64,000 nucleotides of DNA from positions 8,308,001 through 8,372,000 of the forward strand of contig OX597832.1 in assembly GCA_951406725.2 (NCBI GenBank). The letters are read 5' to 3'. A program made the position numbers and the translations under genes. Positions 3,367-63,600 of this stretch are shown piece by piece; position 1 is the first letter of the stretch; each line of letters begins with the position of its first letter. This DNA is from Octopus vulgaris (Eukaryota). The notes below the pieces were generated by a model. The model had not been told where the DNA came from, ran no database searches, and worked only from the letters and a program-made list of their open reading frames with translations.

Positions 3367-4997
3367 CGATTGAGACAGCAGTGCATACCATCAATGTGAC
3401 ACTGGGGTAAAATATAGGAAACCCAATATACCCACCCATCAATTAAGGGTACACCAGGCACGTATATCACAACCATATGTGTGCGACATGGTGATCTCAT
3501 ATCAAGAAATATTTGGTGAAATGGGGCGAGTGATGGGATTGCGCTGGAGAGAACGGAGGACACGTAGGATCATTTGAAGAAGGGGTAGGGTGGAAGGGTG
3601 GAAAAAGAGGGGAAAGGGTTGTGGTTAAGGTATTGGTGTGGGGAAGGTGAGACGATTCAGCACATCCGTATACCGTATATATATATATGTATGTATGTGT
3701 AAAAAAATAAAACTGGGACAAGAACGCAAAACATTTAGAAGACGATATAAAAAACACGGACGGGACATTCAAAGCCTTCAATCTTCAGTCAAGAACCGGA
3801 TCATCCTCGCAATTTCGGCTGATTAATCTTGAGATCGCTCCGATCCGGCCAGCCCCAAGGAAAAACTAAGCTACGAGCATTAGATTCCTTGGTAAAAGGA
3901 TCGAATGTATACGAAACAGGGACAGAAAAACGGGCGATATATGAGATAAATTAAGATAATATGGGGTGTCTATGTACTTTTGATATTTCTATATACTATA
4001 TACACACAAATCGCGATGGTGATAGAATTGATTAGGATGTTATATAAGGCAAAACCATGTGTTGCATCTTAGATGCTCATTATCCTCATTCAAATTTTAG
4101 TTCTGCTATATAACACACCGTTAGATGTTTCCAATTTCAAGAGCCCTCAGGTTTCTAATAATCCATACGGAATGTTCAAGTAAGAATTTCACACCGTCCA
4201 GATGAAAATTAATAAATGCACTCGGCCACAGATATAGAAGCACAGTCACAATCCCATACACCCAAACACTTTCTGTAATCATGTGGACGCAGGTGTGTTT
4301 CAGGTTAAAACTATTGTTCCATAAACATCTCGTTATAGGATCGATCTCACTGTTTGGTAACTTCGACGAGTGTCAATTATAATAGATTTTTCTCAGCTCA
4401 AAACAGATGAGTGTAATCGGGTGGAGGTTTCAGATGTGGAGATGCCCAAATAATATTTTCTATAATTTACTGTATAAGAGTCTATGATCTAAGCCATCGT
4501 ATGTGGCAACATTGATATCCAACACACTCATGAAACAGAATGTTCATATAGAAATAAATTTGCAGTCGCTGTCGGGATGCTCAAGCATGGTCGGAGCAAA
4601 TGTTCGTGCGTGTGTTTGTATGTGTCTGTGTATGTGTGTGTCTATGTATGTGTGTATGTATTTATAGGTATATATATATACTTTAGACTGCAAGAAATCA
4701 AAAAAACCCTAATTGACAGACATTACCCAGCTCAACTCATATAGGATGGGATCAGACGTGCAACAGAAATCGACATAGAAACTTTGAGAAAAGTTCAACA
4801 CAACAACACACCTTCCCCGAAAATACTACCTTACATATCCACATACAACCCCAGAAATAAAGAAGCCTTCACCATCATCACCCAGGATTTACCAATACTT
4901 CATAAGGACCCCAAATTAAAGGAAATTCTAAACACACAAAATCATTAAAAGCTACAAACAACCTAAATCACTTAAAAAGATTCTCACAAAGGCAAAA

Positions 4998-5477
4998 TTG
5001 TTTTCTGAAATTACGGATGCAAAAGTAAAAAAATGTGGTAGACCGAAATGTGTAACATGTCCAAACCTGCTAGAAGGATCAGAATTCCTTTTCAAAGAGG
5101 GACAGAAATTCAAGATCAAATCTAATTTTACTTGTGCCTCTGAAAACATAATTTATGTCATAAAATGCTCGGGCTGCCACCAAAACTACGTGGGGTCCAC
5201 GGGACTATCACTCAGACGTAGATGCACACTGCATCGACAACAGATTGCATTCCCAGAATACAGAATGATACCCTTTAGTGAGCACATTGAGAAATGCGCA
5301 AAGCAACTACTACCACAATTGTTAATCTTTCCATTTTACCAATGTGCTATCGGAACACCAACACAAATTAGACTAAACAAGGAAATATTCTTCATTGAAA
5401 AATATAAGCCCAAACTGAACCACTCCAACATTCTTATACGGAGAAACTCACCCCTCCAAAAAGGCAAGAAATATTAA
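4998..5477 (+). CDS. PLE Zn-finger/GIY-YIG endonuclease fragment
   Basis: KCGRPKCVTC, FTCASENIIYVIKCSGCHQNYVGST, LRRR, KEIFFIEKYKPKLN. Confidence 0.85.
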   Translation: MFSEITDAKVKKCGRPKCVTCPNLLEGSEFLFKEGQKFKIKSNFTCASENIIYVIKCSGCHQNYVGSTGLSLRRRCTLHRQQIAFPEYRMIPFSEHIEKCAKQLLPQLLIFPFYQCAIGTPTQIRLNKEIFFIEKYKPKLNHSNILIRRNSPLQKGKKY

Positions 5478-5569
5478 GCGATTATCTCCCTTACACAGGA
5501 AGAAATCACTTATTGCTTCCCCTTACCTGGAACTCTTCTTTACACTTCTCAACGAAAACATAACGAGGT

Positions 5570-5609
5570 AAGAAATTTGAAAAGCTGAACGCGAAACCGG
5601 TCATTTCTT
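5570..5609 (+). ncRNA. Minimal type I hammerhead ribozyme, U3-A8 core variant
   Basis: aagaaat TTGAAAA gc tgaac gc GAAA ccg GTC atttctt: perfect 7-bp stem I, palindromic stem III ACCGGT, GUC cleavage triplet. Confidence 0.8.
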
Positions 5610-5765
5610 CAAAAACTATGTCATTGTATGAAAAAAATTTATAACATTCTTCTGACATAATGACTCAAATATATATTTTTTAACCTTTTAAAACAAGCCT
5701 TCTGTAGTTTTTTCACTTTTTACTATTTTCTATATATTCAACCACGTGCTTTCACACACCAATTT

Positions 5766-5769
<4 letters not shown>

Positions 5770-5838
<69 letters not shown>

Positions 5839-18987: not shown

Positions 18988-20268
18988 TCAATACGCATAT
19001 GTGCTGCTGTGTCTTTGTTCACTTCTGGAGTACTTTTTGGAGTAACTGTTGGCCAGGAGTACCGGTTGGCCGGAATTGTGTGTTGGCGTGTTTTGAACTG
19101 TCTTCCTTCTTTCTTTTTCTATTCTTTGTCTTTCTGCTTTTCATTGTCTTTCTTTGAACTGCCATTTGACTTTGTTTAGACTTATGTTGTTTATTTCTGA
19201 ACTTTTCTTCAAAGCATGGCGAAGAAATTGAACCCTGCATTGGAGTGGAAAATCATCCTACCCAAGCAATGGTTGAAAAACTTGGAGGAAAGAACGGTGG
19301 TGTTGAGGACTTATTCTAAGTCACTCGACACCATCGCGGTCTTTACTAAGACAAAGATAGAAAAAGTGTTGGCAGAACATCTGCCAACGGTGTGGTTGCT
19401 GTTTGACACCCCTGAGGTGGCTCGCAAATTTGAGAGCCAGCCCTTAGATGGGCAAGAGATTCTGTTTCTTCTCACATATTGTGGGAAGAAATTAACAAGA
19501 GCTTGGGTCTGTGGGCTGCCACCGGGCATTGAACCGGAATGGTTTGGGGATACTATCCGCCGCTGTCTGGGTGGCAGCGGGCCCAAGGTTTTAAATGTGA
19601 TATTGTTGCCGGGGGCTGATTGGGTGGGGTCAAAAGCGGTTTTGACCCTATGGACACAATCAGCCGCTAAAGATCTGGAATTTCCAGATTTTTTTAAAAT
19701 AGACGGTTGCAGGTACCCAGTGATACTTGAGGGACGCATCCCTAAGTGTCACCTGCGCCTGGAATCGGGCCATATTAAGAAGAACTATCCTCAGGACCAA
19801 AGTAGGGTCCTGGAGCAGTTAATAAATGTAGCGACCCCCTCCTCGTTTGGAGGGAAAGAAGAAGGCAGTCGAGGAGGTGGAGACTTCCTCGAAAAAAGGG
19901 TAAAAAGAAGGTGGGCAGTAATGTTCAGGGTGAGGGACCCCTTTCCAAATGACCAATATAGGTTTAGTTTTAGGAGCCCCGGCTTGGGACTGCAGGATTG
20001 CCTGCGGGAGGGTAGGAAAGGTAACAGACTCAGTGCCTCAATTTCTAAGGACGATTGCGTTCATTCTTTGAATTGAGGTAAGAGGTTCAATACCACATTT
20101 TGTTTTGTTGGGCAAAAAGGGAACAATGTATTCGAAAAGCAACAATCGGCGGGTGTTGTCTGCTTCTCACACCAACCATTTTTTCCCATTCCATTATCAT
20201 TGTGTCTTTGTCCAACCCGCAGCTTCTTCATTTTTGTAAGGCTGCATAGTCAATTTTATGAAATAAAG
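18988..20268 (+). mobile_element. ORF1-only (HAL1-like) non-autonomous Tx1/L1-type element inserted in a SINE head
   Basis: About 1.3 kb with a single ORF1-like frame and no RT. It ends TTTGTAA-hairpin-AATTTTATGAAATAAAG like the LINE at 60607. Flanked by a SINE-head-like remnant (18971-18987) and the SINE remainder (20269 onward). Confidence 0.7.
19216..20076 (+). CDS. Retrotransposon ORF1-like protein with a degenerate CCHC zinc knuckle
   Basis: RRM-like segments (LTRAWVCGLPPGIEPEW; FPDFFKIDGCRYPVILEGRIPK) followed by CHLRLESGHIKKNYP, a decayed CxxCxxxGHxxxxC. Confidence 0.65.
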   Translation: MAKKLNPALEWKIILPKQWLKNLEERTVVLRTYSKSLDTIAVFTKTKIEKVLAEHLPTVWLLFDTPEVARKFESQPLDGQEILFLLTYCGKKLTRAWVCGLPPGIEPEWFGDTIRRCLGGSGPKVLNVILLPGADWVGSKAVLTLWTQSAAKDLEFPDFFKIDGCRYPVILEGRIPKCHLRLESGHIKKNYPQDQSRVLEQLINVATPSSFGGKEEGSRGGGDFLEKRVKRRWAVMFRVRDPFPNDQYRFSFRSPGLGLQDCLREGRKGNRLSASISKDDCVHSLN

Positions 20269-24390: not shown

Positions 24391-24431
24391 TGTGTGTGTT
24401 GTATCTATCTATATATATATATATATATAGG

Positions 24432-24670
24432 TGAGAAAGTTGGTTTATGAAAGCACGTGGTTGAATATATAGAAAATAGTAAAAAGTGAAAAACTACAGA
24501 AGGCTTGTTTTAAAAGGCTAAAAAATATATATTTGAGTCAATATGTCATTTCTTCTAAACTATGTCATTGTATGAAAAAAAATTATAACATTCTTCAGAC
24601 ATATTGACTCAAATATATATTTTTTAACCTTTTAAAACAAGCCTTCTGTAGTTTTTTCACTTTTTACTAT

Positions 24671-24671
<1 letters not shown>
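24432..24671. mobile_element. Fold-back mini-insertion made of two inverted copies of the PLE tail at 5600-5770
   Basis: 24432-24547 is the reverse complement of about 5654-5770. 24545-24671 matches 5600-5727 forward. Confidence 0.9.
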
Positions 24672-24750
<79 letters not shown>

Positions 24751-31690: not shown

Positions 31691-31972
31691 TATTAACCCT
31701 CTTTTATAAGATGAAGCGATACATAGTTTATGATCCTTCTTAAGAACAGAAAACACTATCATACAAATCCATGCAAATTATACCCTCTTCACTTTCAAAC
31801 AAACAATATCTTGCATTACGCCAGTAAGGCAGTTCACTATCTATCAGCTGTATTCATTCTGCCTTTAAGAAAAGAACAAAGAATACAATATGGCAGTAGG
31901 TCATCATTCGCGCAAAACCGCGATGTATTGTTAGTATACTATATACACGTGTGTACATGACTATGTGTTTAT

Positions 31973-33190
31973 ATGTATGTAATATCTATATCTATATACC
32001 AACAGGTGTCCGGGGTCGCGATGGGAACTAGGATGGGCCCCAATTTCGCCAATCTCTTTCTTGGCTACATTGAGGCCCAAGTGTTCTCCCAGTTCTCTGG
32101 GCCGACCCCCGAACTATACGGTCGCTATATCGACGACTGCGTAGGTGCCACCTCCCTTTCCCGGGAACTTCTCGGCCAATTCATCTCTTTCCTTTCCAAC
32201 TTTCACCCCTCTCTTCAATTCACCTCCACCATCTCCAACACCTCTGTCAACTTCCTTGACATCTCTCTCCGCATCGATCACCCCTCCAGCTCTCTCACCA
32301 CCACCGCCTTCTTTAAACCTACGGATTCCCACCTCTATCTCAACTTCTCTTCCTCCCACCCCTTCCACACCAAACGAGCCATCCCCTACTCCCAGTTCCT
32401 CCGCCTCCGACGTTTGTGCAGCCGCGACCAGGATTTCGAGACCCAATCTCAATACCTGGCCCGCATGTTCAGACTCCGAGGTTACCCACCCACACTCCTC
32501 TCTGATGCCCTCACCCGCGCCCGTCGCATCGACCGCACTACCGCCTTGTCTCCTTCCTCCCGCCCACCCCCCAACCGCACCCCCTTCCCCCTCCTTTTCC
32601 ACCCCTCTACCCTACCCCTTCGTCGCAAGATACTACGTGCCTTCCGTCGCCTCCAGCTTGATCCCACCACCCGCCCCATTTTCCCTAACCCACCCCTGTC
32701 CTCTTTCAAACGAGCCCGCAATCTGCGTGACCTCCTGGTCCACAGCACCCTCTCTCCTTCCCCCTCAGCCCCACACGGATCATTCCCTTGCTCTAGATCC
32801 CGCTGCAACACTTGCCCCTTCATCACCAACACCACCGCTGTCACCGGCTCCAACCTGCATACTGTACGCATTAGGCACTCTTTTACGTGCACCTCGTCTG
32901 GCCTTATTTACTGCATTAAATGCAACCTATGCGGGATGCTGTATGTAGGTCAGACGGGACGCCGGTTGTCCGACCGTTTCACTGAACACTTGAGGGACGT
33001 TCGCCTACACTCTTTTTCTCCCGTCGCACGCCACTTCCGCTCGGCCGGCCATTCCCGAGATGACATCTCAGTGTTTGGTCTCGCCCCCCACAATGGTCGC
33101 CCACTTTCCAGGCTCCACTTGGAGCAACGCTACATCTTCACCCTACAAACTACCACCCCACACGGACTTAACACAGCCCCCTCCTCTTGA
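31973..33190 (+). CDS. PLE reverse transcriptase (C-terminal part) + Zn finger + GIY-YIG endonuclease
   Basis: GVAMGTRMGPNFANLF, RYIDD, VNFLDI, KPTDSH, AIPYSQFLRLRRLCS, PCSRSRCNTC, LIYCIKC...YVGQTGRRL..RFTEH, TTPHGLN. Homology starts about 31996; the Met comes from flanking sequence. Confidence 0.92.
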   Translation: MYVISISIYQQVSGVAMGTRMGPNFANLFLGYIEAQVFSQFSGPTPELYGRYIDDCVGATSLSRELLGQFISFLSNFHPSLQFTSTISNTSVNFLDISLRIDHPSSSLTTTAFFKPTDSHLYLNFSSSHPFHTKRAIPYSQFLRLRRLCSRDQDFETQSQYLARMFRLRGYPPTLLSDALTRARRIDRTTALSPSSRPPPNRTPFPLLFHPSTLPLRRKILRAFRRLQLDPTTRPIFPNPPLSSFKRARNLRDLLVHSTLSPSPSAPHGSFPCSRSRCNTCPFITNTTAVTGSNLHTVRIRHSFTCTSSGLIYCIKCNLCGMLYVGQTGRRLSDRFTEHLRDVRLHSFSPVARHFRSAGHSRDDISVFGLAPHNGRPLSRLHLEQRYIFTLQTTTPHGLNTAPSS

Positions 33191-36484: not shown

Positions 36485-36956
36485 ACATCGTTATGTTCTT
36501 CTTCTTCTTCTTCTTCTTCTCCACCTTCTACCTCTTGACTATATCACTAATGCTTTTTAGTATAACCCCTACGCAAATTCCATAAACAAACCTTTCAATA
36601 GAAATATTCTCCTGAATTGAACTGCAACTGCTAGCCGCCACTGACCATTCAAAATACGACCATCAAGGCACTCCCAAATTTTCCACCCCATCTCCTCATC
36701 AACCTTCTTCTTCTTCTACCCTACCAAAAATTCACAACGACCTCGAACACACAAGTGCAAACAAGGGAGACAGAGAAAGGCAGAATGCCACTTATATTTG
36801 AACACTATACAAATATTCCTTTAAAAAAACTTTTCTTTTAATTTTTCTAAATTTAATTATTTAATCGTTACAGTTGAAAAGGTCTCAAAATGACCGGAAC
36901 CGGTACTGAAATGTTCTTTATAAAATTATTTTAGCATTTTCTATTTTGACTTGTTT

Positions 36957-37050
<94 letters not shown>

Positions 37051-41273: not shown

Positions 41274-41320
<47 letters not shown>

Positions 41321-41364
41321 AAACAAGTAAAAAATAGAAAATGCTAAAATAATTTTATAGTGAA

Positions 41365-41412
41365 CATTTCAGTACCGGTTTCGGTCATTTTGAGACCTTT
41401 TCAACTGTAACG
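41365..41412 (-). ncRNA. Minimal hammerhead ribozyme, U3-A8 variant
   Basis: Reverse complement of 49294-49341. Confidence 0.75.
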
Positions 41413-42147
41413 ATTAAATAATTAAATTTAGAAAAATTAGAAGAAAAGTTTTTTTAAAAGAATATTTCTATAGTAGTGTTCAGATTTAAGTGGCATTCTG
41501 CCTTTCTCTGACTCCCTTGTTTGCACTTGTGTGTTCGAGGTAGTTGTGAGTTCTTGGTAGGGTAGTAGAGGGAAGGCTGGTGAGGAAAGGGGGTGGGAGA
41601 ATCTGGGAGTGCCCTGATGGTCGTATTTTGAATGGTCAGTGGCGGCTGGCAGTCTCAGTTCAATTCAGGATTGTTTATAGAATTAGCGTAGGTGTTATAC
41701 TAAAAAACATTAGTGACAAACTTAAGGGGTAGGGGGTGGAGAAGAAGAAGAAGAAGAAGAAGAAGAAGAAGAAGAAGGAGAAGGAGAAGATGATGGTGAT
41801 GGTGGTGATGATTATGACGACGATGATGATGATAACGATGATGATGAAGAAGAAGAAGAAGAAGAAGAAGAAGAAGAAGAAGAAGAAGAAGAAGAAGAAG
41901 AAGAAGAAGAAGAAGAAGAAGAAGAAGAAGGAGAAGGAGAAGATGGTGGTGATGATGGTGGTGATGATGATGACGCCGATGATGATGATAACGATGATGA
42001 TGAAGAAGAAGAAGAAGAAAAAAACAGAGAAGGGAGAATATGAATGGGTGTAAATATAGCTATGAAGGGGCTGATTAGTAATGGATTCTATGGAGTGTAG
42101 TATTTGTGTGTGTATATATATTTTTTTCTTTTATTCTAAAGTTGAGG

Positions 42148-44500
42148 TATATTAATTGTTTGTCGTAGACCCGTTAAGAAGTGGCTTGTATTTTGTAATA
42201 AAGAGATTTTCTTTACTTATTCTTTGTCTCGAGGTTGTATCGTCCCTAAATTGGTAGAGGGGAAAATTCTGAAGTTTGGTGTTTTTTTGTTGGCGCAAGT
42301 ATCTATGTGTTGGCTAAAAGCTATTTTTCTGTTTTGGGGAATTTTTATCTGGGATCTGTGCAGGGCCATTCGTTTACGCAAACCATTTTTTGTTTGGCCT
42401 ATGTACTGCTCTTGACACCCGGAGCAGGTTAGTGAGTATATTAGGTTCTCCGAAGCACATGTGAAGTTGCTTTTCACTGTAAACCGTTGTCCCTGTTTGA
42501 AGGAGAACTCCGAACCCTCGATTAGATAGTCGCATATCCCGCAATTGGGTCTTCCACATTTTTTTACTGTCGGCTTCTGTGTTGAAGAGTGAATTCGGGC
42601 TTGTGTAAGGAGACTTTTCATGGATCTAGGCTGTCTTTTGCTTTTTATGATCGTGTGTGTTTTTGGAGGATTGTGTTCATTCTGTGGTCTTTTTTTAGGA
42701 GGGGTATGTTGTGGAGGATGGTGTCGAAGGCTTCGTTATTGAGAGGGTTGTGTGTGGAGATGTATGGTAAGGCTTTTGGTTGTAAGTTTTTCTTTGATTT
42801 GGGATGTCTCAGTTCCTTGATGTTAAGTTGAAGGGCACGTTGAATGCACTTGTCAATAAGTGAAGGTGGATAGTTCCTGGTGATTAGGGTATCTTTTAGT
42901 TCTTGTAGTCGTGTGTCTCTGGTGTTTGCGTTAGAGACTATAGTGCATATCCTTTTTGCTAGATTGAAGGGGATATTCATCCTGGTGTGTCTGGGGTGGC
43001 ATGAATTGAATGGAAGATATTGCTTAGAGTCTGTAGGCTTATAGTATATGTCTGTTTCTATTATATCATTAGCTTTCTTAATGAGGATATCGAGGAAGGG
43101 GAGTTGTTGTTGGCTATATTCCATCGTGAATTGGATGTTTACGTCCAGTCCGTTTAAAATTTTCTGGAATTCTATGAGTTTTTCTATATTTTTATGCCAA
43201 AGGATGAAACAGTCATCTAGATATCTCTTCCAGTTGTTTTCTATGTAGATGGAGAAAGGGCTGCCATATCTTTCTAGAACCTTACGATACAGACTGATCT
43301 CTAGGTATCCTATGACTAGGTTGGCAAAGGAGGGGGCCATTCGTGTACCCATCGCAGTCCCCGATTTTTGTCGGTAGAAGTTGTCATTGAAGGCGAAGAA
43401 GTTATTTTCCAGGATGAATTTAACCCCTTCTATCACAAATTCTTTTTTGATGCGGTGTGGTAGTTCGTTGGCGTGATTCTCTAGCCAGAATTGGATTGCC
43501 TCTAGTCCTAGGTTGTGGGGGATATTGGAGTAGAGGTTGACTACATCGAAGGATACCAGTATGGTGTTTTTGTTTATAGTATTCGGTAGGTGATTGAGCA
43601 TATCTAAGTCGTCCCTTATATAGCTTTTGACATGTTTGAGGAGTGGTTTTAACAGGGTGTCTAAAAAGTTACTGAGGCGGTGGGTTTCGCATGCGGGACC
43701 TGCTATTATGGGTCTCAATTTGAGGTCATTAGGATTAGGGACTTTAATTATTTTGTCTGTAGCTATCTTGCATGCTTTGCTTATTTTTTCACTTTTGTGG
43801 ATCTTAGGTATACCGTAGAATTGGCTAGTTTTACTTGTGAAATTGGTCATATAATCATATTCTTTGTCGGTGAGCCCTGCTTTGTATGGGTTTAATATGG
43901 ATTTTAGTTCCCTCATTATTTTTTGTTGACTGTAGTTTTGTGCCTTTTCATAGTATGTTGTGTCTTCCAGCATAGAAAGTACCAAAGTTATGTAAAATGT
44001 CGTATCCATTAAGACAACAGCACTCCCTTTATCGGCCTCTTTGATTGTTATTGTTTTATCTAGTTTTAATTTGTTCAACTCAGCCCATTCTTTTTTTGCT
44101 GAAGTTTGGTTTGTGTTTTTGTTTGTGCATATGTTGATATGGGTAATTTGATATGTGGTCACAGAAATCATCAAGTGTTTTATTCTTACCTTTCGAGGGG
44201 GTGTAGTTACTCCTATTTCTGGCTAACGATTCGTCCTCGTTGTATTTATCGTATAGCTCCTCAGTAAGTCTTAATTTTCTGCAGAATTCTGCGATGTCTT
44301 CTTTCATTTCATTGTAGTTGGGGTGTTGTGGGGTGGGTGTAAACTTGAGTCCTTTGGAAAGTATGTTTATTTGGTTTGCTGTTAGTTCCTTGTGAGTTAG
44401 ATTAATAATTTTTATTACTTTTGGTTCCTCCTGCTTGTTTGGTGCTATCTTGTGTCTCTGTGTTTGCGTATTGGGTCTAAAAAATGAATGCGGTGGTTGG
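42148..44500 (-). CDS. PLE RT + Zn finger + GIY-YIG (split by 1-bp homopolymer indels)
   Basis: KEADKGSAVV, FYGIPKIHK, LRPIIAG, SFDVVNLYSNIPH, GTAMGTRMAPSFANL, RYLDD, LPFLDI, CGRPNCGIC, NLIYSLTC...YIGQT. Confidence 0.9.
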
Positions 44501-45360
44501 GACGGTAGCTAGTATATAGTTGTTCTTTGTTGATTAGGGGTCTCCTGTTGTGATTTGTGGTGTGTGTTCTTGGAGCAGTATTGAGGAGAGCATCCCGATA
44601 TCCCATATTCGGGTGTGGTGTTCTAGGAGGCCTTCGTAGGTAATCATTGCAAGTGGTGTGGGTTTGTTGTGCATGGTTGTTTAACCGGTTAATGGGACGA
44701 AGATTTCGTTGGTAACTCCTTTGGGTGGGGATGAGGTTGCAGTGTCTATGCTGTGGGTGTTGATTTATCCTTTCTCTGCTTGAAGTGGGGTATTCCTGAT
44801 ATTGTATCGCTGGCTGCTTACAGAGTTGGGGTTAGGTCCTGTATTCTTTTTTGATAGTAGTGAAGGTTCCGATTTTTAGACGGGTGTGTATCGGTGTTTG
44901 GGTGTTGTTTTGGTTTTCTTATTTTCTGGAAAGGGTTGTTGGAGGCGTGCTCTGTTTGAAAGACGGCTTCATAGTCTGAGAACCAAGTGGCGCTTTTCTC
45001 CCAGCGTTGGAGAGATTTTAGTTCTTCTTTTTCACAGTCCTCTTTCCATAGTTTGGAGAACTTCTCTTGATCTGGGCCTTGGGTCATTTTGCGAATTTCT
45101 TCGTTGATATCTTCATCGGTGGATTTTATTTTATCCTCATTCGTTTGGGCCCTCAATTTCAGAAGTTCTATTTCCATTTTCATTTTTCCAGTGCCATTCT
45201 CTCCCTGAGGTGTCTTTGTGTTTCAGGTTCTTCTGTAATAGCTTTGAACTGGAATTTACGTGGGAGGATTAACGGGGTCCGGTTGAGCCATTTTTCGTAT
45301 ATATCCGCTTTGTTGTTGTTTTGGATCATCTTCCAAAAGGCGAACTTTCTATCTCTGAGT

Positions 45361-46270
45361 GATAGAAAGTTCGCCTTTTGGAAGATGATCCAAAACAACA
45401 ACAAAGCGGATATATACGAAAAATGGCTCAACCGGACCCCGTTAATCCTCCCACGTAAATTCCAGTTCAAAGCTATTACAGAAGAACCTGAAACACAAAG
45501 ACACCTCAGGGAGAGAATGGCACTGGAAAAAATGAAAATGGAAATAGAACTTCTGAAATTGAGGGCCCAAACGAATGAGGATAAAATAAAATCCACCGAT
45601 GAAGATATCAACGAAGAAATTCGCAAAATGACCCAAGGCCCAGATCAAGAGAAGTTCTCCAAACTATGGAAAGAGGACTGTGAAAAAGAAGAACTAAAAT
45701 CTCTCCAACGCTGGGAGAAAAGCGCCACTTGGTTCTCAGACTATGAAGCCGTCTTTCAAACAGAGCACGCCTCCAACAACCCTTTCCAGAAAATAAGAAA
45801 ACCAAAACAACACCCAAACACCGATACACACCCGTCTAAAAATCGGAACCTTCACTACTATCAAAAAGAATACAGGACCTAACCCCAACTCTGTAAGCAG
45901 CCAGCGATACAATATCAGGAATACCCCCACTTCAAGCAGAGAAAGGATAAATCAACACCCACAGCATAGACACTGCAACCTCATCCCCACCCAAAGGAGT
46001 TACCAACGAAATCTTCGTCCCATTAACCGGTTAAACAACCATGCACAACAAACCCACACCACTTGCAATGATTACCTACGAAGGCCTCCTAGAACACCAC
46101 ACCCGAATATGGGATATCGGGATGCTCTCCTCAATACTGCTCCAAGAACACACACCACAAATCACAACAGGAGACCCCTAATCAACAAAGAACAACTATA
46201 TACTAGCTACCGTCCCAACCACCGCATTCATTTTTTAGACCCAATACGCAAACACAGAGACACAAGATAG
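45361..46270 (+). CDS. 5'-truncated PLE ORF1 (charged, coiled-coil-like, then low-complexity basic)
   Basis: DRKFAFWKMIQNNNKADIYEKWL...LRERMALEKMKMEIELLKLRAQ... With one A-run indel near 45865 it continues to ...GYRDALL...RIHFLDPIRKHRDTR*. Confidence 0.65.
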
Positions 46271-48558
46271 CACCAAACAAGCAGGAGGAACCAAAAGTAA
46301 TAAAAATTATTAATCTAACTCACAAGGAACTAACAGCAAACCAAATAAACATACTTTCCAAAGGACTCAAGTTTACACCCACCCCACAACACCCCAACTA
46401 CAATGAAATGAAAGAAGACATCGCAGAATTCTGCAGAAAATTAAGACTTACTGAGGAGCTATACGATAAATACAACGAGGACGAATCGTTAGCCAGAAAT
46501 AGGAGTAACTACACCCCCTCGAAAGGTAAGAATAAAACACTTGATGATTTCTGTGACCACATATCAAATTACCCATATCAACATATGCACAAACAAAAAC
46601 ACAAACCAAACTTCAGCAAAAAAGAATGGGCTGAGTTGAACAAATTAAAACTAGATAAAACAATAACAATCAAAGAGGCCGATAAAGGGAGTGCTGTTGT
46701 CTTAATGGATACGACATTTTACATAACTTTGGTACTTTCTATGCTGGAAGACACAACATACTATGAAAAGGCACAAAACTACAGTCAACAAAAAATAATG
46801 AGGGAACTAAAATCCATATTAAACCCATACAAAGCAGGGCTCACCGACAAAGAATATGATTATATGACCAATTTCACAAGTAAAACTAGCCAATTCTACG
46901 GTATACCTAAGATCCACAAAAGTGAAAAAATAAGCAAAGCATGCAAGATAGCTACAGACAAAATAATTAAAGTCCCTAATCCTAATGACCTCAAATTGAG
47001 ACCCATAATAGCAGGTCCCGCATGCGAAACCCACCGCCTCAGTAACTTTTTAGACACCCTGTTAAAACCACTCCTCAAACATGTCAAAAGCTATATAAGG
47101 GACGACTTAGATATGCTCAATCACCTACCGAATACTATAAACAAAAACACCATACTGGTATCCTTCGATGTAGTCAACCTCTACTCCAATATCCCCCACA
47201 ACCTAGGACTAGAGGCAATCCAATTCTGGCTAGAGAATCACGCCAACGAACTACCACACCGCATCAAAAAAGAATTTGTGATAGAAGGGGTTAAATTCAT
47301 CCTGGAAAATAACTTCTTCGCCTTCAATGACAACTTCTACCGACAAAAATCGGGGACTGCGATGGGTACACGAATGGCCCCTCCTTTGCCAACCTAGTCA
47401 TAGGATACCTAGAGATCAGTCTGTATCGTAAGGTTCTAGAAAGATATGGCAGCCCTTTCTCCATCTACATAGAAAACAACTGGAAGAGATATCTAGATGA
47501 CTGTTTCATCCTTTGGCATAAAAATATAGAAAAACTCATAGAATTCCAGAAAATTTTAAACGGACTGGACGTAAACATCCAATTCACGATGGAATATAGC
47601 CAACAACAACTCCCCTTCCTCGATATCCTCATTAAGAAAGCTAATGATATAATAGAAACAGACATATACTATAAGCCTACAGACTCTAAGCAATATCTTC
47701 CATTCAATTCATGCCACCCCAGACACACCAGGATGAATATCCCCTTCAATCTAGCAAAAAGGATATGCACTATAGTCTCTAACGCAAACACCAGAGACAC
47801 ACGACTACAAGAACTAAAAGATACCCTAATCACCAGGAACTATCCACCTTCACTTATTGACAAGTGCATTCAACGTGCCCTTCAACTTAACATCAAGGAA
47901 CTGAGACATCCCAAATCAAAGAAAAACTTACAACCAAAAGCCTTACCATACATCTCCACACACAACCCTCTCAATAACGAAGCCTTCGACACCATCCTCC
48001 ACAACATACCCCTCCTAAAAAAAGACCACAGAATGAACACAATCCTCCAAACACACACGATCATAAAAAGCAAAAGACAGCCTAGATCCATGAAAAGTCT
48101 CCTTACACAAGCCCGAATTCACTCTTCAACACAGAAGCCGACAGTAAAAAAATGTGGAAGACCCAATTGCGGGATATGCGACTATCTAATCGAGGGTTCG
48201 GAGTTCTCCTTCAAACAGGGACAACGGTTTACAGTGAAAAGCAACTTCACATGTGCTTCGGAGAACCTAATATACTCACTAACCTGCTCCGGGTGTCAAG
48301 AGCAGTACATAGGCCAAACAAAAATGGTTTGCGTAAACGAATGGCCCTGCACAGATCCCAGATAAAAATTCCCCAAAACAGAAAAATAGCTTTTAGCCAA
48401 CACATAGATACTTGCGCCAACAAAAAAACACCAAACTTCAGAATTTTCCCCTCTACCAATTTAGGGACGATACAACCTCGAGACAAAGAATAAGTAAAGA
48501 AAATCTCTTTATTACAAAATACAAGCCACTTCTTAACGGGTCTACGACAAACAATTAA
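46207..48558 (+). CDS. PLE RT + Zn finger + GIY-YIG (split by 1-bp homopolymer indels)
   Basis: KIINLTHKEL...LSKGLKFTPTP N-terminus, RT motifs as in the left arm, and a C-terminus restorable to ...KENLFITKYKPLLN, matching the 4998-5477 homologue. Confidence 0.9.
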
Positions 48559-49293
48559 TATACCTCAACTTTAGAATAAAAGAAAAAAATATATATACAC
48601 ACACAAATACTACACTCCATAGAATCCATTACTAATCAGCCCCTTCATAGCTATATTTACACCCATTCATATTCTCCCTTCTCTGTTTTTTCTTCTTCTT
48701 CTTCTTCATCATCATCGTTATCATCATCATCGGCGTCATCATCATCACCACCATCATCACCACCATCTTCTCCTTCTCCTTCTTCTTCTTCTTCTTCTTC
48801 TTCTTCTTCTTCTTCTTCTTCTTCTTCTTCTTCTTCTTCTTCTTCTTCTTCTTCTTCTTCATCATCATCGTTATCATCATCATCGTCGTCATAATCATCA
48901 CCACCATCACCATCATCTTCTCCTTCTCCTTCTTCTTCTTCTTCTTCTTCTTCTTCTTCTTCTTCTCCACCCCCTACCCCTTAAGTTTGTCACTAATGTT
49001 TTTTAGTATAACACCTACGCTAATTCTATAAACAATCCTGAATTGAACTGAGACTGCCAGCCGCCACTGACCATTCAAAATACGACCATCAGGGCACTCC
49101 CAGATTCTCCCACCCCCTTTCCTCACCAGCCTTCCCTCTACTACCCTACCAAGAACTCACAACTACCTCGAACACACAAGTGCAAACAAGGGAGTCAGAG
49201 AAAGGCAGAATGCCACTTAAATCTGAACACTACTATAGAAATATTCTTTTAAAAAAACTTTTCTTCTAATTTTTCTAAATTTAATTATTTAAT

Positions 49294-49341
49294 CGTTACA
49301 GTTGAAAAGGTCTCAAAATGACCGAAACCGGTACTGAAATG
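49294..49341 (+). ncRNA. Minimal type I hammerhead ribozyme, U3-A8 variant
   Basis: cgttacag TTGAAAA ggtc tcaaaat gacc GAAA ccg GTA ctgaaatg, with palindromic stem III ACCGGT. Confidence 0.78.
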
Positions 49342-49423
49342 TTCACTATAAAATTATTTTAGCATTTTCTATTTTTTACTTGTTTTTTCATATATATCAA
49401 CTCGTGTGTTCCTTTTCACCCTT

Positions 49424-49533
<110 letters not shown>

Positions 49534-60606: not shown

Positions 60607-63600
60607 CTTTATTTCATATAATTTGCCATTTAGGCATTTACAAAGAGGGGACAAACAAGGACAGACAAATATAAAGGGTGAAGTAGCTTAACACAGTTAC
60701 AATTTTCGAATGAAATTATGGATAAGATTATAAACAATGAATTTTACGAAGGCAATGTTTAAAAATATTAATGATCATGTCGAAGGACGGACACCCAGCC
60801 ATCCGGGTAGAACCTTTACTTTCTGATCCGATCACACTTACCTGGTGCCAAACATACCCATCTTGTATGCCACAGGCTTCCATCTTTTCACAAACATATC
60901 TCGTGACAGACACCTCTTCTCCAGCCTGATTTTGCTACTGAGGTGGTAACTAAAAAAGTTAATCAACCCCTGGCCGGAGACAAAGGTGCCTGTCACTATA
61001 CCTTTCGTACGCGTCTTCCATACTGTTTCTTTCAGTATGGCTACTACACAGAAAAAACAAGCCTTTCTTTCCCTGTTAAGGAAAGGGGCGGCACAATCTC
61101 GATGATAGACTCAGCTGATAGCTGTACTCTTCCCATCACTGACAACAGTTGTTCAACAAAAGCTATCAGTCCCGATAACTCCGGACACTCCACGAATGCG
61201 TGCAAGACGGTCTCCCTATCCTGCTCACATCGCGGGCATGTCGGCGAGACGGCACTACCGTGCCTTGACAGCTTGTCGCGAACAGGTAAAGCCGCACGGA
61301 AACACTGCCAGGCTAGGGATTTCTGGTAATTATCCAGATACCCCGGCCCGAACGTCCTCCGGAACAGGTTGACCAACTGATTTTCATCGTAGCCCAGGGT
61401 CTCCCCCAAGGCGTCTTCGGACTTAATCTCCACTAACCTGCTATAGAAATCCGTGGTGGAACTCCTGTTGCCGGCGTTGCCCACCCGAGATAGTAGCTGG
61501 AGTGCCTGACGGCAGTCCAAATAACATTCACTCAGTTTAGGTCTCCGCTTGATCCATGCACCGATGTCCGTTAGGGATGTTAACTGGGGAAGGTAGAACC
61601 GGACGTGCGGCGACCACACCTGCTCTCCATCCAGGTAAAGCCAGAGGTGCCTCAACCTTAACGCGAATTTTCGCATCCTCAGCCAAGGCATCCCTAGCCT
61701 ACCCTTTAGCGGTTTCTGGCAGCAGACAGAGCGCTTTACAAGTGGCTTTCCTCCTTTCCACAAAAATCGGAAAAGGATTCTCTCCAACTTGTTCAGCCAC
61801 AAATCGGGGCAAGGCACCACGGTCAGACGGTAGGTGATTACTGATGCTATAAACATCTGCACCACCTCCGCCTTCCCTAGCAGGGATAACGCCCGCCCAG
61901 ACCAGGTCTGGGTTAGAGCGGTCACCTTGTTGGCCACCTCACTCCAATTTTTCTCAATCTGGAGGTCTGGCCCGAACCAGACTCCGAGCAGCTTAACAGG
62001 ACCTTCCATCCAACGCCCTACGACGTTATTGGACGGCTTCGGCTTGCCCCTCCAGGTGCCGAGTTGCAAACCGACCGACTTGTCCTTGTTAACCTTTGCT
62101 CCTGCCACCGCCTCGTAACTTTTGATGGCCTCTTCCACCACTGGAAGCTGGCCTTCGTCTGCCACGATGATGGAGGTGTCATCCGCATACGCCGTAGCTC
62201 CTCTTCCACACCATAGATCATGCGGCGCGCCCCCTAGTACCTCCAACTTCCGCAGCAAAGGCTCAAGAGCCAATACGTATAGGAGCGAGGACAGGGGACA
62301 CCCTTGACGAACTGAACGCTCGATCCTGAACGGCTTCGAAAAGGAACCGTTCACCTTGACTACAGACTCGATGTCGCTATACAAAGCAGCGATCCAACCT
62401 CGAAAGGTCGGGCCTAGGCCAGCCTCTCCGAGGACCGCCGCCAGGTACCGATGGTCGACCCTATCAAATGCTTTGGACTGGTCTAAATGTACCAGTGCTC
62501 CCCCTGCGCCAGAAAGCTTCCCCACCCTCTCTAAGGAGTAGCGTATAAGGTGGAGATTGTCGTGGATCGTTCTGCCGGGGATAGCGCACATTTGCGCTTC
62601 CCCGACAAGTTTGTCCACGACCCGCGCCAACCTTTTTGCTAGCACCTTGGCCAGAATCTTTAACTCTGTGTTTAACAGAGTTATGGGCCTGAAGTTCCCT
62701 ATCTCGTCCCCCTTGTTCGGGTCCTTCCTGATCAACGTCACCGCCCCCCGGCTCGCAGACTTGGGAATTCTCCCATTCTGCTGCCAGTTGGCGTAGACGC
62801 TAGCCAGCAGGTGCCCGAACAAGTCTGGCATACTTCTATAAAATTCATAGGGCAGACCATCGAGACCCGGCGACTTCTCCCCGGGGCACTTGCCCAACAC
62901 CTCGATTACTTCCTCGGCTGTGAATGGCCCTTCACAGCACTCAGCCTCTCGTGTCGAGAGGCGCGGGCCACCAGACAGGAAGTCCCTAAGGGCCTCACCA
63001 TGATCCAGCGTCCCGCACCCCCGAACAACTCGGCGAAGTGCTTGTGAAGTGCCTCACACATCTCGTCCCGCTTCTTGATCGTGCATCCGTTTTCATCAAC
63101 AAGAGACCCAATTGTGGCATCGTTTCCACGCTGTGTTTCTATCGTACGGGCCCATCCGGCAACATTAATCCCCTCACGGCCCAATGCTCGTACTTTAGCC
63201 CGGACTCTACATCCCTCATGTTTGGTTTTGAGGTGACGGTCTAATGCCGTTCTCGCCGCTAAAATGTGAGATGCAGAGCCCAACCTCAACGCCTCCTCTA
63301 AGTTCTTAACTTGTTGCCCTTCTATTCTAGCCCTATCTAGTCTTAGTTGTTTACTAAATCTAATGGACTCGAATCGAATGGCTCTTTTGAGGGTGAACCA
63401 CCACCGGTTATTAACCACGGCTCCGGTTAACGCCCTCTGCACTAACACCTTAATCCGGCTACGGTATGCCTCGCGTGTCAAAATAGACTTGTTCAGCTTC
63501 CAGTAGCCGGTTTCTATCTTAAGTGTGCTATCTATGTCCAGTCTACACGTGACCATTCTATGGTCAGTATAGGGCACCTGGACGAGCTGTGGACAACTAA

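Follow-up and report, generated by a model that had tools for sequence, protein, structure and literature searches.

Head-to-head insertion of two Penelope-like element tails that meet at a predicted hammerhead cleavage site

Penelope-like elements of the window and their predicted hammerheads

The stretch of DNA analysed here, 64 kb in length and referred to below as the window, is microsatellite-rich animal DNA. At 24432-24674 it holds an insertion of 243 bases made of two 3'-tail ends, arranged head to head, of a Penelope-like element (PLE) family designated family A. The reference copy of this family (4684-5770, plus strand) is a 5'-truncated PLE that lies between (TA)n runs and consists of the end of an open reading frame (ORF) followed by a 3' tail. 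The ORF end (4932-5477) contains a CX4CX2C linker and then a GIY-YIG/CCHH region, reading YVIKCSGC...YVG followed by HRQQ and EH, as looked for in a C-terminal GIY-YIG domain with CCHH. Pfam alone returned sub-threshold matches only (GIY-YIG, E=0.0075). Over 163 aa the frame shares 58% identity with the C-terminal end of P0001, a protein of 753 aa that has a hit to RVT_1. The window copy is truncated at ~4684; a reverse transcriptase (RT) domain is carried by this close relative and by a second family of the window, family B. The linker, CGRPKCVTC, and the (TA)n flanks agree with the CX2-5CxxC linker before GIY-YIG and the microsatellite targets given for the Neptune and Nematis clades in the available text of PMC8557442. 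As judged by its GIY-YIG region, linker and targets, family A is an EN+ PLE with a linker of the Neptune/Nematis type.

The named relatives of the retroelement proteins in the window comprise bivalve proteins along with records that carry a mollusc-symbiont label. Family A is abundant, with 5067, 4628, 3535 and 2163 contigs of four public runs aligning to the reference copy. Among metagenome contigs a 24-nt tail pattern gave 0 matches and the family A protein gave 223 pattern matches, none of them a relative; a search of viral contigs with an alignment of relatives gave 66 matches, again with no relative among them. A GTDB search for family A relatives returned 39 loci with 27-47% identity. 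Hammerhead motifs were found by scan in 3 of the 39; when 12 of these loci were scanned again, 2 were confirmed. Loci with hammerheads form a set too small and too divergent for breakpoints to be compared. Twenty-seven of the 39 (L010-L020, L023 and L025-L039) come from one bacterial-labelled assembly, with a PLE-type RT every ~32 kb on several contigs, an arrangement suggestive of host DNA in which a very long element is tandemly repeated.

Family B, 66% identical to family A in the ORF, forms an 8-kb head-to-head palindrome (41309-49425) with a tail on the right arm only. The turn at ~45357 is a near-perfect hairpin inside the ORF, ~4 kb from the hammerheads of the palindrome, and both arms end at family B's own 3' ends. 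Over ~4 kb the arms show no substitution, and their 12 gap columns all fall in simple runs; the palindrome is either very young or assembled with homopolymer errors. An older family B tail copy (36521-36960, minus strand, 86% identity) has the short 3' end and reaches far past the hammerhead in the 5' direction. Across the three family B copies of the window, two 3' ends are short and one is long. A third, GC-richer PLE fragment (31961-33190, plus strand) has an open RT-thumb-GIY-YIG frame of 409 aa and ends near a T run; motif scan found no hammerhead in it. Other retroelement frames are a 669-aa open frame at 61044-63053 (minus strand), which we take to resemble the RT of a non-LTR retrotransposon, and a 291-aa frame at 19201-20076 (plus strand), presumably similar to an ORF1 protein.

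A minimal type I hammerhead motif with a U3-A8 core is present in the family A tail at 5570-5609 (plus strand), with stems I and II of 7 and 2 bp and a palindromic stem III; the core reads TTGAAAA (5577-5583) and the triplet is GUC (5600-5602). All elements expected of the minimal type I class, namely the 3-8 pair, GAAA, NUH, stems I and II and a palindromic stem III, are found at this site. Scanning both strands of the window gave three such motifs, that of family A and two in the 8-kb palindrome, where each arm has one whole motif (49302-49333, plus strand, and 41404-41373, minus strand). The family B copy at ~36.9 kb has a changed GAAA in its hammerhead and was missed by the scan. Two copies of the family A motif fold to the expected dimer at -14.3 kcal/mol, with stems I and II and an intermolecular stem III, and in this predicted dimer the bases directly 5' of C5602 lie inside the intermolecular helix. 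The monomer fold is not significant (z 0.8-1.3 in two short windows). Rfam gave no match for 5570-5609 at gathering level and, up to E=10, 6 matches with no hammerhead family among them, while the family B hammerhead matches Hammerhead_HH9 at E=0.015, below gathering; in our reading the Rfam models are not made for minimal hammerheads of the dimer type. Families A and B share the same core on stems that differ in sequence but stay paired, the triplet being GUA in family B, and the hammerhead therefore looks maintained in this comparison.

Cleavage of the family A RNA is predicted after C5602. Hammerheads cut 3' of the NUH triplet, so GUC would stay on the upstream product and the 3' product would start at A5603. 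The family A motif resembles the metazoan PLE hammerheads of Cervera and de la Pena 2014 (PMC4209133), for which the available text gives the U3-A8 variant, a dimer requirement and low in vitro activity, in its U3-A8 core, palindromic stem III and predicted dimer; it differs from them in a stem II of only 2 bp and in being known as a predicted motif only. Pairs of hammerhead motifs 100-700 bp apart on opposite strands also figure in that source. The role of minimal hammerheads in animal PLEs is called unclear in the available text of PMC8557442, and a review model of hammerhead PLEs involves cleavage, circles and tandem copies (PMC6765202).

Architecture of the insertion at 24432-24674

The inverted arm of the insertion (24432-24547, minus strand) is a copy of reference positions 5654-5770, with 5 substitutions and 1 gap in 117, and reaches the long 3' end at (TA)n. 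The direct arm (24545-24674, plus strand) copies 5600/5603-5730, with 5 substitutions and 1 gap in 128, and ends at the short 3' end; it matches to 24671 (reference 5727) and continues through one mismatch and two matching bases to 24674 (5730). Both matches lie well outside what chance would give (95% over 132 bases, E 1e-55; 94% over 125 bases, E 1e-48). The insertion is flanked on the left by (TA)n (24410-24429) and on the right by (TC)n(TA)n (24673-24747), and no target duplication is readable in these repeats.

The arms meet in a shared GTC (24545-24547), which equals reference 5600-5602 on one side and the complement of 5654-5656 on the other. Identity of the direct arm with the reference reaches exactly 3 bases to the left of ATTTCTTC (24548, reference 5603), so that the direct arm may start anywhere in 5600-5603. 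The ambiguity of the junction spans 5600-5603 on the direct side and 5657-5654 on the inverted side, and includes the predicted scissile bond. The overlap is 3 nt (GTC) with the majority allele, A at 5653, and 4 nt with the reference allele of the window; A at 5653 accounts for most of the contig depth in all four runs (206k/304k, 157k/243k, 193k/256k and 30k/42k). The initial annotation had described a fold-back insertion whose arms share a GTC at the predicted hammerhead triplet, and the arm alignments and the motif scan bear this out. Its broader reading, of a retrotransposition product of a hammerhead-bearing PLE tail with the scissile bond inside the junction window 5600-5603, also holds; the mechanism that it proposed does not, as discussed below.

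The arms are staggered at both ends. Reference 5603-5653 is held only by the direct arm and 5731-5770 only by the inverted arm (40-51 nt unique to each), the latter as a 40-nt tail at 24432-24471 (minus strand). In the 77 nt that both arms copy, they differ by 2 substitutions and 1 indel. The direct arm shows 2 differences from the unrelated reference copy against these 3 from arm to arm, and at the level of sequence the divergence of the arms does not separate one cDNA from two.

An inverted, 5'-truncated pLTR that overlaps a direct pLTR, with microhomology joins and (TA)n targets, is the layout described for EN+ PLEs (PMC3846280, PMC8557442), in which a tail of 30-40 bp can be at either end (Arkhipova et al. 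2013, PMC3846280; Craig et al. 2021, PMC8557442). The insertion has an inverted, 5'-truncated pLTR beside a direct pLTR and a 40-nt tail at one end, that of the inverted arm, and shares with the published cases, as far as the available text describes them, the head-to-head arms, the one-sided tail and the (TA)n targets. The 5' shortfall of its inverted arm is 54 nt, compared with 37 bp in Pen2a_Av, and its overlap is 3 nt, compared with 15 bp. Unlike the layout in these sources, it consists of two pLTR stumps with no ORF, and its direct arm begins at the hammerhead triplet. It is a real insertion with a known PLE layout.

Other classes were considered for the insertion and set aside. It is no intact ribozyme: of the hammerhead, the triplet and the 3' stem I strand are all that remain. 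Neither is it a non-LTR retrozyme, which requires tandem units with a whole hammerhead, whereas here the arms are inverted and the hammerhead core is missing. Tandem retrozymes derived from pLTRs are described in a 2026 preprint, and the insertion is not of the form given in the available text.

Family A breakpoints in contigs of public sequencing runs

The initial annotation had predicted a pile-up of 5' breakpoints at the GTC site. As a surrogate for a genome-wide breakpoint map, contigs of four (X1, X2, X3 and X5) of 24 listed runs were used, with a likeness of 85. The best of these covers 57% of the words, and the window's own individual may thus not be among the four. Depth in the runs is noisy, with neighbouring bins differing more than tenfold, and is no copy number.

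Loose ends behind 5737 that lead into (AT)n are present in 37, 22 and 20 contigs of X2, X3 and X5, respectively. Since reference 5731-5737 reads TATATAT, these loose ends correspond to the short 3' end at which the direct arm stops, and 5731-5770 is the optional tail. The short 3' end thus recurs in many contigs. Among the 24 of 922 loose-end rows listed, none starts at 5598-5606, and no place where many molecules begin on the reference was tabulated from the contigs of the four runs. The summed depth at 5611 over that at 5567 is 0.92, 1.11, 1.06 and 0.95 in the four runs, with no step. The predicted pile-up was accordingly not seen among the listed rows, in what is a weak surrogate test. The survey argues against a dominant pile-up at the cut; the rows listed, 24 of 922 for loose ends and 15 of 22 for joints, leave room for a modest one made of junctions present in single copy. 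A pile-up of insertion ends at the cut would be evidence of cleavage in vivo, and the very high copy number of family A would allow ends to be counted.

Two strand-changing joints are found among the 15 of 22 joints listed, 5160/5727 (X1 and X3) and 5542/5655 (X2 and X3), and the joint of the insertion itself is absent from these 15. The short side of 5160/5727 in X3 is 44 letters long, exactly 5727-5770, so both joints are read as head-to-head. Their long arms start at 5160 and 5542, neither at the cut. The long arm of 5160/5727 starts right after a GTC (5157-5159) that lies outside any hammerhead, with a 3-nt overlap, which cautions against taking GTC-adjacent ends as ribozyme cuts.

The short arm starts at 5654-5657 in two of the three family A head-to-head junctions seen. 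The site also forms the 3' side of a predicted hairpin (5617-5659), and the majority allele TCAGAC in its region resembles, on our assumption, an initiator motif; transcripts may start there, or RT may stop. Given the noise in depth, an apparent rise at 5653-5669 in the run contigs is not counted as evidence.

The base that follows the predicted cut, A5603, is lacking in 4, 7, 3 and 6 contigs of the four runs, which corresponds to ~7% of depth in X2, 5% in X5 and ~0.1% in X1 and X3. In X5, the T that pairs with A5603 in stem I is missing from a loose end at 5588; the two losses were not seen together on a contig. Loss of A5603 may be one half of a compensatory change by which a subfamily dropped a stem I pair; alternatively, it may be a scar of ligation. 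A loose end behind 5602 (10 contigs, X1) was rejected as a breakpoint, as it runs on as family sequence without A5603 and is an indel allele.

Origin of the junction

A tail on the inverted arm together with a loop on the direct arm points to two cDNAs rather than to self-priming, and the stagger of the arms fits two cDNAs and not one. The account that we hold slightly likelier to be right than wrong is that two cDNAs, likely primed from both target strands, were joined by 3-nt microhomology on uncleaved RNA. The endonuclease would cut the (TA)n tract on both strands; one target end would prime at the long site (5770) and be extended to 5654-5657, the other would prime at the short site (~5730) and be extended to 5600-5603, and the two cDNA ends would join through the GTC/GAC overlap, the RNA still being intact. 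Two-strand priming, two initiation sites, joining by microhomology and an uncleaved template are all inferred steps. In their favour are the published layout with its microhomology joins, the short 3' end frequent in the contigs, and the presence of both short and long 3' ends in family B. Consistent with an uncleaved template, the long arms of the two other opposite-strand joints (among 15 of 22 joints listed) start away from the cut. Against it stand the maintained-looking hammerhead and a 6-nt overlap at 5623 that was left unused. It also counts against the account that the 3' ends could have become staggered afterwards, through deletion of the tail between (TA) runs.

Biochemical data on a PLE of another family are compatible with this account. 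Purified protein of the Anolis Poseidon element (PAc) cleaves and extends each of the two strands of its target. It initiates reverse transcription at two positions of the RNA, one on either side of the 'tail', and insertion is just as efficient when the hammerhead is dead; in the available text of that study, no RNA-seq reads were found to start or end at the hammerhead cut (Frangieh et al. 2024, PMC11167929). Family A resembles PAc, as described there, in its two 3' ends bounding a tail downstream of the hammerhead and in its AT-rich targets, and extension of both strands is what the two arms of the insertion would need. In contrast to PAc, family A belongs to another clade (CX4CX2C linker, Neptune/Nematis type) and is known from sequence alone; against two-strand priming at this locus, the supporting data were obtained in vitro with a Poseidon element of a different family.

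L1 twin priming is related to the two-cDNA account: there, too, each of two target ends primes a cDNA and microhomology joins the products. The difference is that in L1 different parts of one RNA are copied, while both arms of the insertion copy the same 77 nt near the 3' end.

The overlap of the junction with the cut site is one case, and one junction cannot decide on cleavage. In the literature surveyed, no PLE insertion with its start at a hammerhead cut is described. Random head-to-head pairs drawn in the family A tail share an overlap of at least 3 nt in 6.9% of 56,850 cases, before any selection for overlaps. With a blunt start at 5603, the GTC matches at only 2 of 156 partner positions. 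To an inverted arm ending at 5654, a 6-nt overlap was on offer at 5623, as opposed to 3 nt at 5603, and the join nevertheless used 5600-5603; that the better overlap was passed over suits a cDNA that simply ended there. Joining explains the GTC overlap only if the template still held GUC. The two are alternatives: with a cleaved template the overlap is coincidental, and if the overlap was used the template was uncleaved. We regard the match to the hammerhead cut site as probably incidental.

A different, rather unlikely origin of the direct arm is a cDNA started at 5730 that ran off at A5603 of a cleaved RNA and was end-joined to a cDNA stopped at 5654, in which case the GTC match would simply reflect the preferred stopping place of the second cDNA. 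A5603 falls within the four-position ambiguity of the junction, the unused overlap at 5623 suits a run-off end, and the dimer folds with stems I and II and an intermolecular stem III. The second joint (X2 and X3) also ends at 5655; if that end is favoured whatever its partner, a GTC match comes cheaply, whereas with a uniform partner end its probability is the 2/156 given above. A rough likelihood ratio of 10-15 for run-off, assuming a ~230-nt spread of long-arm starts and a fourfold enrichment of 3-nt overlaps, is offset by a low prior (an estimated few percent of copies) that follows from the contig survey and in vitro work. No loose end occurs before 5598-5606 in the 24 of 922 rows listed, and the noisy depth shows no step between 5567 and 5611; cleavage is dispensable in vitro and, in the available text, no RNA ends were found at the site in the anole (PMC11167929), and metazoan minimal hammerheads cleave poorly in vitro (PMC4209133). 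That a fraction of family A insertions is copied from the hammerhead 3' product, with RT starting ~130-170 nt from the cleaved 5' end, running off at A5603 and yielding a short cDNA that is joined to another primed from the opposite target strand, is an equally tentative proposal. If true, the insertion would document in the genome that a metazoan PLE hammerhead cuts in vivo and that a PLE primes from two strands. Less probable still is that RT stalled within a few bases of the folded core, or crossed the cleaved but paired junction, and that the resulting GAC 3' end joined the other cDNA. Both the position and the GTC overlap would then be explained, at a site favoured by the ribozyme fold with or without cleavage, and the bases directly 5' of C5602 do lie in the intermolecular helix of the predicted dimer; set against this are the weak monomer fold, the need for RT to unwind stem I beforehand, and no excess of ends near 5600 among the rows listed.

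The mechanism of the initial annotation, a single cDNA run off a cleaved template and self-primed on an internal GTC, is very improbable. Self-priming has been proposed for inverted PLE junctions (PMC3846280) and fits the symmetric 8-kb palindrome. Here, however, a 5' end set by cleavage and self-priming on the GTC are mutually exclusive, since a cDNA of a template starting at A5603 has no GAC end. In addition, the second half of the bottom strand contains 5731-5770 and that of the top strand contains 5603-5653, both absent from the respective cDNA. The copied-back arm is thus not wholly within the first cDNA, which removes the insertion from the single-cDNA fold-back class; the stagger would call for an extra step, such as a later deletion or nuclease trimming to account for the 40 extra nt of the inverted arm. 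Least probable of all is an assembly or read fold-back artefact. The joint is absent among the 15 of 22 contig joints listed, as an artefact would have it, yet over 77 nt the arms carry 2 substitutions and 1 indel relative to each other, their ends coincide on neither side, they stop at the two natural 3' ends of the element, and the flanks are unrelated.

The two cDNAs on uncleaved RNA favoured here make the insertion most likely ordinary for its class and not proof of ribozyme cutting in vivo. Nor did the suggestion that it is a small-scale model of the 8-kb palindrome survive: the palindrome belongs to the other family (66% ORF identity) and turns ~4 kb from its hammerheads. The head-to-head layout is common to both and the breakpoint is not; a single-cDNA fold-back fits the palindrome better than it fits the insertion. 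The lasting point of the locus is its geometry, with the tail on the inverted arm and the loop on the direct arm, in a layout that was itself already known.
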